64,000 nucleotides of DNA, from positions 608,001-672,000 of the forward strand of contig CAVYIM010000003.1 in assembly GCA_963768655.1 (NCBI GenBank), given 5' to 3'. The notes below the pieces were generated by a model. That model was not told the origin of the DNA and did no database searches. It saw nothing but the letters and a program-made list of their open reading frames with translations. The position numbers were made by a program, and so were the translations under genes. The stretch comes from an uncultured Chloroflexia bacterium. Its GTDB lineage: Bacteria > Chloroflexota > Limnocylindria > Limnocylindrales > CSP1-4. This document shows, piece by piece, positions 22,940-49,702 of the stretch (position 1 is its first letter; each line of letters begins with the position of its first letter).

Positions 22940-23602
22940 CTAGGCGCGCCTGGCGAACTCGGCCACGAAGCGTGGAACCGGCGGATCTCCGGGCTCGAGG
23001 ATCTCGTCCAGGCGGGCCAGCTCCAGGCCGGGCCCAACGAAGTAGTCCAACTCGTCGCGGGTGAGCGGCCATGGCATCAGGCCCTCCGGGTCCTGCGGCC
23101 GGCGGCTCCGGGCCACGACGAGCAGGGTTCCGCCGGGGGCGACCGAACCGCCGATCGAGTGGGCGCAGGCCGCCCGAGCCTCGCCGTGCAGAACCTGGAT
23201 CGTGTAGGCCTCGAACACGAAGTCGAAGGCGCGCGACCAGCCGGGCGGCGGGGAGAGCACGTCGGCCACTTCGTAGCGCACGCTCGAATCGGGGAAGCGG
23301 GCGCGGCAGCGGGCGATCGCGGTTGGCGCGACGTCGAAGGCGGTCACTTCCAGGCCGGTGGTGGCCAGCAGCTCGGCGTCGTCACCGTAGCCGCAGCCGA
23401 CCACGAGAGCCCTGCCGCTCGGCGGAGCCGGCCGGCGCTGGAGCCATTCCACCAGGTAAGGGTTCGGTTCGAGATCGACCCAGGAGATGCGAAAGCCATC
23501 TCGTTCCGACTCTGCGTACAGCGTCTCGAACCAGCCGATCACGTCCCCACGAGCGATCGCATCGCGGGCGAGTTCTCGGGCGTGGGCTCGCGGGTCGGAC
23601 AC
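22940..23602 (-). CDS. Class I SAM-dependent methyltransferase (TPMT-like)
   Basis: RALVVGCGYGDDA motif I, AFDVAPTAI, FDFVFE; GGAGG SD. Confidence 0.9.
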   Translation of the reverse strand: MSDPRAHARELARDAIARGDVIGWFETLYAESERDGFRISWVDLEPNPYLVEWLQRRPAPPSGRALVVGCGYGDDAELLATTGLEVTAFDVAPTAIARCRARFPDSSVRYEVADVLSPPPGWSRAFDFVFEAYTIQVLHGEARAACAHSIGGSVAPGGTLLVVARSRRPQDPEGLMPWPLTRDELDYFVGPGLELARLDEILEPGDPPVPRFVAEFARRA

Positions 23603-23672
23603 TTGCGCCTCCGAATCAGAAGCGCCAGGTCAGGCGACCTGGCGCTTGCGGACTTCGAATGTGGGACCGAGC

Positions 23673-24530
23673 CTAGGGCTTCTTGGCTGCCGGCTTGACC
23701 GGAGCCTTCTCCTTGGCCGCCGGTTTCTCGGGCTTGGCTGCCGGCTTGGCCGGAGCCTTCTCCTTGGTCGCCGCTTTCTCGGGCTTGGCGGCGGGCTTGG
23801 CCGGCTTGGCGGCGGGCTTGGCCGCCGGTTTCTCGGGCTTGGCGGCGGGCTTGGCCGCCGGCTTGGCGGCGGGCTTTGCCGCCGGCTTGGTCGCCGCTTT
23901 CTCGGGCTTGGCCGCCGCTTTCTCGGGCTTGGCCGCCGGCTTGGCTGCCTTCGGGGCGGCTGCCTTCGGGGCGGCTGCCTTCGGGGCGGCTGCCTTCGGG
24001 GCGGCTGCCTTCGGGGCAGCTTTCGCCTTGACCGGCGTCTCGAGCTGCGCCGCTGCCGCCGCGCTGGCGGCCTCGGCTCGAGCGGTCTTGGACAACGCAG
24101 CGCGGGCCTTGCCGGCGGCTGTCTGCGGTCCCTTGGCCTTGGTGGCCTTGCCGGAGGCGATGCGAGTTCGAGCGGCCTTGACCGAGGCGGCCGTGCCGGT
24201 TGTCTTGGCGACACGTCCGGTCGTCTGGACGGACTCGCCGGCCTCGAGGGCATTGAGCCTCAGAGCCAGGCGCGACTTGCGGCGCGCGGCATTGTTGGGG
24301 TGGATCGCCCCGACCTTGGCGGCCTTGTCGAGAGCGCTCATCGCCTGCGCCAACGCTTCGGCGGTATCGCCTTCGGCAGCGCCGGTCGCGACCTTGACGG
24401 CATGGGTCGCATATGTCTTCGCCGCGCTGCGGCGCGGCTGATTGATGGCCCGCCGGCGCTCTGCCTGGCGAACCCGCTTGATCGCTGACGGCGTGCGGGC
24501 GCCGGTCCAGCCTCGGGGCGTCTTGGCCAA
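23673..24530 (-). CDS. rpsT: 30S ribosomal protein S20 with ~190-aa Ala/Lys/Pro-rich C-terminal extension
   Basis: SAIKRVRQAERRRAIN...SALDKAAKVGAIHPNNAARRKSRL; divergent from lepA as in Firmicute-type synteny; TTG start with GAGG. Confidence 0.92.
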   Translation of the reverse strand: MAKTPRGWTGARTPSAIKRVRQAERRRAINQPRRSAAKTYATHAVKVATGAAEGDTAEALAQAMSALDKAAKVGAIHPNNAARRKSRLALRLNALEAGESVQTTGRVAKTTGTAASVKAARTRIASGKATKAKGPQTAAGKARAALSKTARAEAASAAAAAQLETPVKAKAAPKAAAPKAAAPKAAAPKAAAPKAAKPAAKPEKAAAKPEKAATKPAAKPAAKPAAKPAAKPEKPAAKPAAKPAKPAAKPEKAATKEKAPAKPAAKPEKPAAKEKAPVKPAAKKP

Positions 24531-24657
24531 AGTTCGAAGACCTCTATGCTGCAACGGAAACGGCAGGCGCGCAGAGTGGGCGCCAGCCGGCGCGACGCTT
24601 GATGGTACCAGAGTCCGCGCGACACGCGTGCGAGCAGATACGCGCGCGAGCTTTTAC

Positions 24658-24801
24658 TCATGCGCACCGCGGTCGATGCTGCCTGGCACTCGTTCCGTTG
24701 ACGAGGAGCGCCAGGCCTTCGAGCAGCAAGAGCACGCCGAGGAGGCCGGCGAGCACCGCCAGGATCGCCACGCCGGTGGGACGGTCCATCCCGTTCTCCA
24801 T
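24658..24801 (-). CDS. Small membrane peptide or truncated membrane-protein remnant (47 aa)
   Basis: [34 protein letters not shown]...; GGAGGG SD. Confidence 0.45.
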
Positions 24802-24914
24802 CTGTATGCCCTCCGCTACCCAATGGTGAACGCGGATACGATAGTCGCCCGAAGCCCTCTGCGGCGCTTCTCGGCGTGGCCCTTTGCGCGCACCGCCCCG
24901 CTACACTCCCACCC

Positions 24915-26726
24915 GTGACCATACCTCAATCTCGCCTGCGCAACTTCAGCATCATCGCCCACATCGACCACGGCAAGACGACGCTCTCGGACCGGCTGCT
25001 GGAGCTGACGCACACCATCGAACCGCGCCAGATGACGAGCCAGATGCTCGACTCCATGGACCTGGAGAAAGAGCACGGGATCACGATCAAGGCCCGGGCG
25101 GTCCGCCTCGAGTACACGGCCTCCGACGGCCTGGTCTACGGCCTCAACCTCATCGACACACCCGGCCATGTCGACTTCAGCTACGAGGTCAGCCGCAGCC
25201 TCCAAGCGTGCGAAGGCGCCATCCTGGTCATCGACGCGACGCAGGGGATCGAGGCTCAGACGCTGGCCAACGTCCATCTCGCCCTCAAGCAGAACCTGAC
25301 GATCATCCCCGTTCTGAACAAGATCGACCTGCCGTCCGCCCAGATCGACGTCGTCATCGATGAGCTCGAGAACGTCCTGGCCATGCCGCGGGAAGAGGTG
25401 CTGCTCGCCTCGGCCAAGGACGGGACCGGCGTGCCGGAGATCCTCGAGGCGATCGTGCAGCGCGTGCCGCCGCCGAAGGGCGACCCGGATGCGCCGCTCC
25501 AGGGCCTCATCTTCGACTCGCACTACGACCCCTACAAGGGTGTCGTCGTCTACATCCGTCTCGCCCAGGGAACGCTCCACCAGCACGACATCATTCGGCT
25601 CATGGGCTCGGGCGCGGAGGCCGAGCTCGTCGAGCTCGGCTTCTTCCGGCCGCAGCTCGTGCCCGTGCTCGAGCTGCACGCGGGCGACGTCGGCTACGTG
25701 GCGACCGGCCTCAAGAGCGTCCGCGACGCGCAGGTCGGCGATACGATCACGACCGTGGGCCATCCGGCCGAGCATCCGTTGCCGGGTTATCAGCCAGCCA
25801 AGAGCCTGGTTTTCGCCGGCATCTACCCCATCGTCGGGTCCGACTACCCGCTGTTGCGCGATGCCATGGAGAAGCTCCACCTCAACGACGCCAGCTTCAG
25901 CTTCGAGCCCGAGAGCTCGGTCGCCCTGGGGTTCGGATTCCGATGCGGCTTCCTCGGCCTGCTTCACATGGAGATCGTCGAGGAGCGCCTGGAGCGCGAG
26001 TTCGGCCAGGAGCTGATCGCCTCGGCGCCTTCGGTCCAGTACAAGGTCGTGCTCATGCACGGCCAGGGAACGGTCGACGTGGACAATCCGTCCAAGATGC
26101 CGGATGCCGGCGTGATCGAGGAGATCCAGGAACCCTGGGTCAAGCTCGGCATCGTCACTCCGTCCAGCTACATAGGGACTCTGATGGAGCTGGCCAAGAA
26201 CCGGCGCGGCACCTTCCTCGAGATGGAGTATCTGGACCCCAAGCGCGTCCTGCTCAACTTCGAGCTGCCGCTGGCCGAGGTGATCGTCGACTTCTACGAT
26301 CAGCTCAAGACACGCACGCAGGGCTACGCGTCTATGGACTTCGAGGAGATTGGCTACCGGGCGGCCAACCTGGTCAAGGTCGACGTCCTTGTCGCCGGCG
26401 ATCCGGTCGATGCGTTGTCGGTGATCGTGCATCGCGACCGGGCTCAGGCGATCGGGCGCGAGCTGGTCCACCGGCTGCGCGGCCTGATCCCGCGCCAGAT
26501 GTTCGATGTCGCCGTCCAGGCCGCGATCGGCTCCAACGTCATCGCCCGCGAAACCGTCGTCGCCATGCGCAAGAACGTCCTCGCGAAATGCTATGGCGGT
26601 GACATCACTCGCAAGCGTAAGCTGCTGGAGAAGCAGAAAGAGGGGAAGCAGCGGATGAAGCGGGTGGGATCCGTGGAGATACCCCAGGAGGCCTTCCTGG
26701 CGGTTCTCCGAATGGACGAGGTATGA
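24915..26726 (+). CDS. lepA: Translation elongation factor 4 (LepA)
   Basis: [56 protein letters not shown]; GTG 24915 after TACACT. Confidence 0.98.
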
Positions 26727-49516: not shown

Positions 49517-49702
49517 TTGGCAGAAGTCCGTGTGGGTGAGAACGAGAGCTTCGAGAGTGCCCTGCGCCGGTTCAACAAGAAGATCCAGCAGAGCGGCATC
49601 CTGGCCGAGGCCCGTCGCCGCGAGCACTACGAGAAGCCGAGCGTGAAGCGCAAGCGCAAGGAAGCGAAGCGCAAGAAGGTCGCCCGCCAGCAGCAGAGCT
49701 AG
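49517..49702 (+). CDS. rpsU: 30S ribosomal protein S21
   Basis: [15 protein letters not shown]...[12 protein letters not shown]; AAGGAGGTG SD, TTG start. Confidence 0.97.

Follow-up and report, generated by a model that had tools for sequence, protein, structure and literature searches.

Ribosomal protein S20 (bS20), the product of rpsT, ranks among the bacterial ribosomal proteins that are smallest and least elaborated, and E. coli ribosomes that lack it are reported to be impaired in mRNA binding and in subunit association. The S20 chains of solved bacterial ribosomes count 76–108 amino acids (aa), while plastid bS20c reaches up to 202 aa. Here, we analyzed the rpsT gene found in a 64,000-nucleotide stretch of DNA (referred to below as the window) from an uncultured Chloroflexia bacterium of the order Limnocylindrales (GenBank assembly GCA_963768655.1, contig CAVYIM010000003.1, positions 608,001 to 672,000), which encodes an S20 of 285 aa. 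A preliminary description of this gene had read the product as a ~97-aa S20 core joined to a histone-H1-like tail, and had proposed that the protein might tether ribosomes to the nucleoid or serve as a chromatin protein.

Low-complexity terminal regions have been surveyed on prokaryotic ribosomal proteins, with 822 such regions in bacterial ones (Ntountoumi et al. 2019, PMC6821194). The survey gives S2, S16 and L25 as the commonest carriers, describes L21 tails as lysine-rich and sees in lysine-rich low-complexity regions a hint of nucleic-acid binding. Its main text does not name S20 (0 occurrences), and its supplement holds at least two S20 proteins with 29–35-aa K/A terminal regions. The window S20 shares with that class an Ala/Lys-rich terminal low-complexity region, and this biased region is conserved as a feature among orthologues. 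Its tail is, however, about four times longer than the two S20 tails of the supplement and is preceded by a conserved, non-repetitive module. K/A-tailed S20 proteins with short tails were thus already known, and it is the conserved module that is the new element. The small-subunit protein RPS6 of mosquitoes (PMC548281) carries, as does the window S20, an H1-like Lys/Ala-rich C-terminal extension confined to one lineage, although RPS6 is eukaryotic, a different ribosomal protein and of independent origin. A Lys/Ala/Pro repeat composition encoded by tandem-repeat DNA, as seen here, is also found in mycobacterial HupB, Pseudomonas AlgP, chlamydial Hc2 and the tail of mycobacterial Ku (PMC3553676). 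Unlike these AKP/PAKKA-tailed DNA binders, the window S20 has no HU, HC2 or Ku domain at E≤1 in Pfam, and its folded partner is an rRNA-binding protein. Full-text searches, the coverage of which did not extend to subscription journals, found no literature on a long Limnocylindria S20 or on its module.

Beyond canonical bS20, the window protein has a 10-aa N-terminal extension, a 46-aa two-helix module and a 125-aa disordered tail. The C-terminal extension consists of two distinct parts, namely a module that is conserved like the core and a disordered tail of variable sequence. In window coordinates, the gene and the parts of the protein are:

23673..24530, minus strand: rpsT coding sequence, 285 aa plus TAG stop at 23673–23675 (open reading frame, Pfam and NCBIfam)
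24501..24530, minus strand: N-terminal extension, aa 1–10 (M-AKTPRGWTG), 99% mean pairwise identity in the genus
24252..24500, minus strand: canonical three-helix S20 core, aa 11–93 (Pfam/NCBIfam, AlphaFold2, Foldseek)
24195..24251, minus strand: variable hinge, aa 94–112, 60% identity in the genus, predicted local distance difference test (pLDDT) below 50 at aa 105–112
24057..24194, minus strand: basic module of two predicted helices, aa 113–158, conserved like the core
23676..24056, minus strand: Ala-rich spacer and disordered Lys/Ala/Pro(/Glu) tail, aa 159–285, ending in KKP (composition, repeats, AlphaFold2)

That the protein is an S20 follows from two family profiles. PF01649 (Ribosomal_S20p) matches aa 11–93 over its full length (profile positions 1–83 of 83, E 2.2e-19, 70.3 bits against a cut-off of 29.5), and TIGR00029 of NCBIfam matches with E 1.8e-19 and 70.1 bits (cut-off 33); a Pfam scan of the 285-aa protein at E≤1 returned PF01649 and no other family. 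In an AlphaFold2 model built with a 65-row alignment as input, the core reaches pLDDT 83–95 and has the same three-helix fold as canonical bS20 in the ribosomes of Mycobacterium smegmatis, Thermus thermophilus and E. coli. The best Foldseek matches are all S20 chains of solved ribosomes (probability 1.00, template modeling score, by target, 0.73–0.82), and only the core is covered; the best PDB chain match of the core has E 2e-11. The preliminary description was therefore right in seeing a real 285-aa S20 with a long K/A/P tail and a short N-terminal extension, while its ~97-aa core should be shortened to the 83 aa of the Pfam match, with the last predicted core helix running to aa 96. The genome to which the window belongs (G000; 3.37 Mb in 9 contigs, 88.6% complete) has one S20 match, so that the second, short rpsT that the preliminary description had asked about was not found in it, and nearly all relatives scanned likewise have a single match per genome. 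We regard it as practically beyond doubt that the 285-aa open reading frame is a real gene and the sole functional rpsT.

Past the core, AlphaFold2 predicts two helices in the module (aa 113–130 and 138–158, pLDDT 50–63) and no secondary structure from aa 159 onward. To measure conservation, we used the mean pairwise identity per region within the genus, within the family of the window genome (f1), and within f1 together with the related family f4:

N-terminal extension: 99% in the genus, 77% in f1, 70% in f1 and f4
core: 83% in the genus, 70% in f1, 67% in f1 and f4
hinge (aa 94–112): 60% in the genus, 52% in f1, 34% in f1 and f4
two-helix module (aa 113–158): 84% in the genus, 72% in f1, 61% in f1 and f4
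tail: 40% in the genus, 30% in f1, 15% in f1 and f4

Judging from these alignments, the module, which carries a near-invariant motif, QTAAGKA(R/K)AAL, is under clear protein-level constraint. The basic segment and the repeats that the preliminary description had quoted are indeed present. The basic segment is more than low complexity, however, as it corresponds to a conserved and, by prediction, structured two-helix module. Of the whole extension, this module is the likeliest to be important on the ribosome.

The same layout recurs widely among relatives. When referring to the families below, it should be noted that f1, f2 and f4 are those with a long S20, that f3 and f5 of the same class have a short one, and that the class and phylum tallies take in a few unpublished genomes, on which no conclusion rests. 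An S20 match was found in 39 of 41 related genomes and in 23 of the 24 other species of the genus, in which the stop-to-stop frames measure 224–635 aa; 19 of these 23 loci show the same layout with an intact K/A/P tail up to the stop. At higher ranks, matches were obtained in 142 of 151 genomes of the order, 199 of 201 of the class and, for family f1, in 105 of 108 genomes from 27 genera, with every f1 frame at least 182 aa long. The lengths of the called S20 proteins are:

same genus: 217–285 aa, median 254 (n=21)
other f1 genera: 209–276 aa, median 242 (n=17)
family f4: 169–186 aa, median 175 (n=21)
family f2, with 1-Mb genomes: 126–152 aa, median 147 (n=6)

These statistics and the alignments leave out loci with a frame change in the tail (L002, L003), with N/X letters (L014, L025, L035) or at a contig end (L041, L044), as well as those where the wrong stretch was parsed (L015, L020, L066) and one from an unpublished genome (L076). 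None of the other same-genus proteins among the 21 measured is as long as the window S20 with its 285 aa. In the sister family f3, S20 is of ordinary size, about 88–90 aa, and has neither an N-terminal nor a C-terminal extension (6 of 6 loci read), and the one f5 genome also has an ordinary short S20. Beyond these genomes, 8000 candidates drawn from 5.8 billion proteins by a word index were scored, and at least 3840 of them are S20 relatives of 156 aa or more at E≤1e-3. Several of these long relatives are named by NCBI as '30S ribosomal protein S20 [Candidatus Limnocylindrales bacterium]', while a few JGI records are mislabelled through the tail as Meckel syndrome protein, ribonuclease E or HU-beta. 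Inheritance of the extension thus spans the order and, in part, the class.

This recurrence bears on whether the extension is real at all. In GC-rich DNA, long frames arise by chance, this stretch is open in further frames too, and stop-to-stop frames in relatives run up to 635 aa, all of which could be taken to mean that a stop codon was lost, that the assembly is wrong or that a chance frame was read through, with the real protein ending near residue 100. The preliminary description had itself allowed for a lost stop codon unique to this assembly. Yet the same frame, module and K-rich tail occur across many species and genera that were assembled independently, the module is constrained as a protein, and a strong hairpin follows the stop. 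The layout is thus order-wide, with the long relatives counted above, and its recurrence refutes an artefact, which we consider vanishingly improbable.

In the rest of the phylum, 295 of the 301 sampled genomes have an S20 match. Among the 150 matches listed, all from outside the class, 6 stop-to-stop frames reach 200 aa or more and most measure 90–170 aa. AK-rich S20 tails were read in three other Chloroflexota families, with 35–41 aa in f24 (L092/L093; G337, G433), 52 aa in f28 (L097; G321) and about 108 aa in one f9 genome (L096; G412). These tails are independent and do not have the Limnocylindria module. A tendency of S20 to carry an AK-rich tail thus recurs in the phylum, and the Limnocylindrales are the extreme among the loci read.

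We also asked whether the module exists apart from S20. A profile of the module, compared with 1.84 billion representative proteins, gave 78 matches at E≤1e-3; 49 of the 78 have an S20 domain, and the other 29 we read as this same gene, called with a frameshift, as a fragment or as a chimera. The profile search did not find the module in the 5 genomes of the short-S20 families f3 and f5, while in the window genome, which served as positive control, it was found once (E 1.5e-20). An origin by gene fusion was rejected, as no stand-alone copy was seen in the 5 f3/f5 genomes nor among the 1.84 billion representatives. The module therefore appears exclusive to the S20 of this class, with no donor gene in the searched sets. 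It looks like a gain on S20 in the common ancestor of f1, f2 and f4, followed by a loss in f2 with its streamlined genomes.

Lineage-specific extensions of ribosomal proteins usually lie on rRNA, and the S20 site, as described for the Thermus 30S subunit, is at the bottom of the 30S body. We consider it fairly probable that the window S20 is a lineage-specific enlargement of a ribosomal protein, made up of a putative rRNA-binding module and a tail that would act as a flexible polycation. As to how these two parts would work, we are evenly divided on the following proposal. The module would sit on 16S rRNA, adjacent to where S20 binds at the bottom of the 30S body, and would fold only there. 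The tail would stay flexible and, as a polycationic arm, contact RNA or other polyanions near the small subunit electrostatically and without specificity, which might serve to shield or assemble rRNA, to capture mRNA, or to reach neighbouring ribosomes or the nucleoid.

Several observations weigh against this proposal and should be considered along with it. The AlphaFold2 confidence of the module is low (pLDDT 50–63), and the alignment to solved S20 chains never extends past query residue 98, leaving the module without structural precedent. The 16S rRNA of the genome (L077; G000:C5:465474-466971, minus strand), which at 1498 nucleotides (nt) matches the full model, has no expansion in model positions 1–720 for the module to bind. 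Family f2 has a short K-rich tail without the module, and f4 has the module with an acidic end in place of the K/A/P tail, so that neither part is indispensable across the clade. Finally, the tail is disrupted at 4 of the 23 same-genus loci, by a frame change in L002 and L003 and by N/X letters in L014 and L025. These disruptions are probably assembly errors within the repeats of metagenome-assembled genomes; if genuine, they mean that loss of the tail is possible. As a separate observation, helix 17 of the same 16S rRNA is shortened by 17 nt (model positions 451–468).

The tail itself (aa 161–285) consists of 41% Ala, 26% Lys, 21% Pro and 6% Glu, with no Arg and a net charge of +25. For a crude comparison, 1090 long open reading frames of the genome, which is ~70% GC, contain 2.1% Lys and 8.4% Arg. 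The last third of rpsT is built of tandem DNA repeats, as detected with Tandem Repeats Finder:

23943..24021, minus strand: 15-nt tandem repeat, 5.3 copies, 98% identical, encoding AAPKA units
23682..23857, minus strand: 51-nt tandem repeat, 3.4 copies, 87% identical, encoding KPEK/KEKAPAKPAA units

Further periods of 12, 21 and 33 nt are present in the 3' part of the gene and, together with the 51-nt unit, encode the KPAA/KPEK repeats. The KAAAP repeat of the preliminary description is thus there, although in five copies (the AAPKA-type 15-nt unit) rather than the four counted. Repeat units differ between the species of the genus, and, taken together with the near-identity of the DNA repeats, this fits replication slippage; the 217–285-aa spread of the 21 same-genus proteins likewise agrees with the earlier suggestion that the repeat number may vary in this way.

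One could go further and regard the tail (not the module) as nothing but a tolerated by-product of such slippage where a highly expressed gene ends in GC-rich repeats, harmless and without a function of its own. The near-perfect DNA repeats (98% and 87% identity) are what this would produce, as is the variation between species, where the tail-bearing extensions reach 124–194 aa beyond the core within the genus at 40% tail identity. Family f2 has a short tail and f4 none, the 4 disrupted tails among 23 same-genus loci are compatible with dispensability, and the 35–108-aa AK-rich S20 tails of other Chloroflexota families are as a mutational tendency would predict. Nonetheless, Lys is enriched 12-fold against strong GC pressure while Arg is avoided entirely, the tail is kept in all 27 f1 genera sampled, and its charge and composition stay constant: the intact same-genus extensions have a Lys fraction of 0.17–0.22 and a net charge of +24 to +36. 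Many members of the genus also end in KKP or EKKPKA, and this terminal KKP/KKPKA motif is conserved. Moreover, 125 additional aa come at a cost in a protein that ranks among the most abundant, an argument that is made in PMC6821194. We therefore find it unlikely that the tail is such a by-product. Because 26% of the tail is encoded by the Lys codons AAG/AAA in a ~70% GC genome, with the GC-rich Arg codons avoided, selection would be on lysine itself, and these features argue for selection on the composition of the tail rather than on its sequence.

A K/A/P tail is not a general habit of this genome, as only 7 open reading frames pass the filter for such stretches and the only ribosomal proteins among them are S20 and L21. 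The S20 tail is the longest stretch of this type in the genome. The L21 gene (G000:C3:154229-155038, plus strand) encodes the second-longest, a C-terminal Lys/Ala/Glu/Pro-rich tail of 92 residues by the filter, in keeping with what PMC6821194 notes for L21. A further 278-aa stop-to-stop frame (G000:C4:762513-763346, minus strand) has a basic, low-complexity K/A/P/R-rich body and a zinc-ribbon-like C-terminal end (CxxC...CxxC), and its product could be a nucleic-acid-binding protein.

The composition of the tail led us to consider DNA as its partner, as the preliminary description had done. On this view, the K/A/P tail would bind DNA like the C-terminal domain of H1 or the tails of HupB, AlgP or Hc2, and the protein, whether unbound or within the 30S subunit, would help to compact the nucleoid or link ribosomes to it, the lineage having lost HU. 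With 41% Ala, 26% Lys, 21% Pro and no Arg, the tail does have the composition of known DNA-binding AKP tails, and one JGI record labels a relative as 'DNA-binding protein HU-beta', presumably through tail similarity. The likeness to a linker histone holds for this composition and not for a domain. The disordered Lys/Ala/Pro tail of H1/H5 has its counterpart here, while the winged-helix domain was not found at E≤1 in Pfam, nor was the HU domain of HupB-type proteins (PF00216). Chlamydial Hc2 (PF07382) gave no match to the window S20 at E≤1, and one relative, P0178, reached 25.9 bits against a cut-off of 40. Indeed, no DNA-binding domain of any kind was detected in the protein by Pfam at E≤1. 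In addition, S20 is a primary 16S-binding protein, so that most copies are expected on ribosomes.

The distribution of HU within the class would favor a role in the nucleoid. Profile searches found neither HU/IHF (PF00216) nor a histone fold or Lsr2 in the window genome. Within the class, PF00216 was found in 0 of 44 genomes of f1, 0 of 5 of f2 and 0 of 49 of f4, against 21 of 21 of f3 and the one genome of f5, so that possession of HU coincides exactly with a short S20 among these families. As these are kin families, however, this clean split may be one event on a single branch. The phylum serves as a control, and there PF00216 was found in only 136 of 301 genomes. Family f21 lacks HU (0 of 9) and has S20 frames of 90–98 aa, the HU-less families f22 and f14 have C-terminal S20 overhangs of 4–10 aa (5 loci read), and the HU-bearing f9 (14 of 14) includes the S20 with a 108-aa AK-rich tail (G412). 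Within the class, the HU-less f4 has the module and no K/A/P tail. Loss of HU as the driver of the tail was thus rejected, since there is no general coupling across the phylum. A nucleoid role of the S20 tail gained no specific support, and we judge a DNA-binding tail of this kind to be improbable. A combined version, in which the module anchors S20 to the 30S subunit while the H1-like tail binds DNA, so that ribosomes or free S20 would be a major nucleoid-organising or tethering factor and a slippage-set tail length would tune the coupling, we hold to be a long shot. As a separate observation, HU was not found in over half of the sampled Chloroflexota, including lineages with a short S20.

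We return to the enlarged S20 as a ribosomal protein, the reading that we favor. An S20 three times the normal length is fixed in a whole order of abundant uncultured bacteria of soil, peat and freshwater, and the conserved module suggests a structural feature in the ribosomes of this lineage that no solved ribosome shows. With module and tail in f1, the module only in f4 and a short tail only in f2, the class offers a natural test case for lysine-rich disordered ribosomal tails. The finding would gain further weight if the module makes a new ribosomal contact, or if the tail acts on DNA.

For the gene itself, the start and the flanking elements were assigned as follows. The start codon is TTG (24528–24530). 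In each of the three long-S20 families, the loci that were parsed have a start codon exactly 10 codons ahead of the Pfam core, namely TTG in f1 (with a few GTG), GTG in f4 and ATG in f2. As the start position is conserved in relatives, the rpsT start is fixed at 24530, and an alternative upstream TTG at 24554 is unconserved in them. A non-ATG start is shared with canonical bS20, as rpsT of E. coli begins with UUG and is autoregulated via its leader, and the single copy is alike in both. The remaining features around the gene are:

24541..24545, minus strand: AGAGG, ribosome-binding-site-like, 10 nt before the TTG start
23620..23647, minus strand: perfect 12-bp GC-rich hairpin, terminator-like with a weak U tract, starting 26 nt past the stop

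Folding of 68 nt at the hairpin gives -31.1 kcal/mol (z -2.8). A consensus terminator scan reported three terminator-like sites, none of them this hairpin, and a consensus promoter scan found no promoter at rpsT. An Rfam scan of positions 23400–25000 at E≤1 gave two sub-threshold matches at chance level and no known leader or regulatory RNA.

Public sequencing runs were also considered. All 24 runs listed hold at most 0.10 of the sampled words, and they therefore represent relatives and not the window organism. When 4 of the 24 runs were compared at 80% likeness, Logan contigs of relatives from three RNA libraries, mostly 80–95% alike, covered parts of the core and module (positions ~24105–24545). 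Some contigs from the RNA libraries connect module-like to tail-like sequence, with differing letters between them. As RNA libraries may contain DNA, such contigs of relatives count neither for transcription nor for repeat polymorphism, nor do they point to a habitat.

Downstream of rpsT lies a methyltransferase-like open reading frame (22940–23602, minus strand). The same window also holds a gene for ribosomal protein S21 (49523–49681, plus strand; G000:C3:657523-657681), the presence of which rules out loss of S21 as the cause of the S20 extension. On its upstream side, rpsT is divergent from lepA (24876–26726, plus strand); the spacer between the two genes (24531–24875) measures 345 nt, and its last 30–40 nt before the rpsT start are near-identical across the genus.

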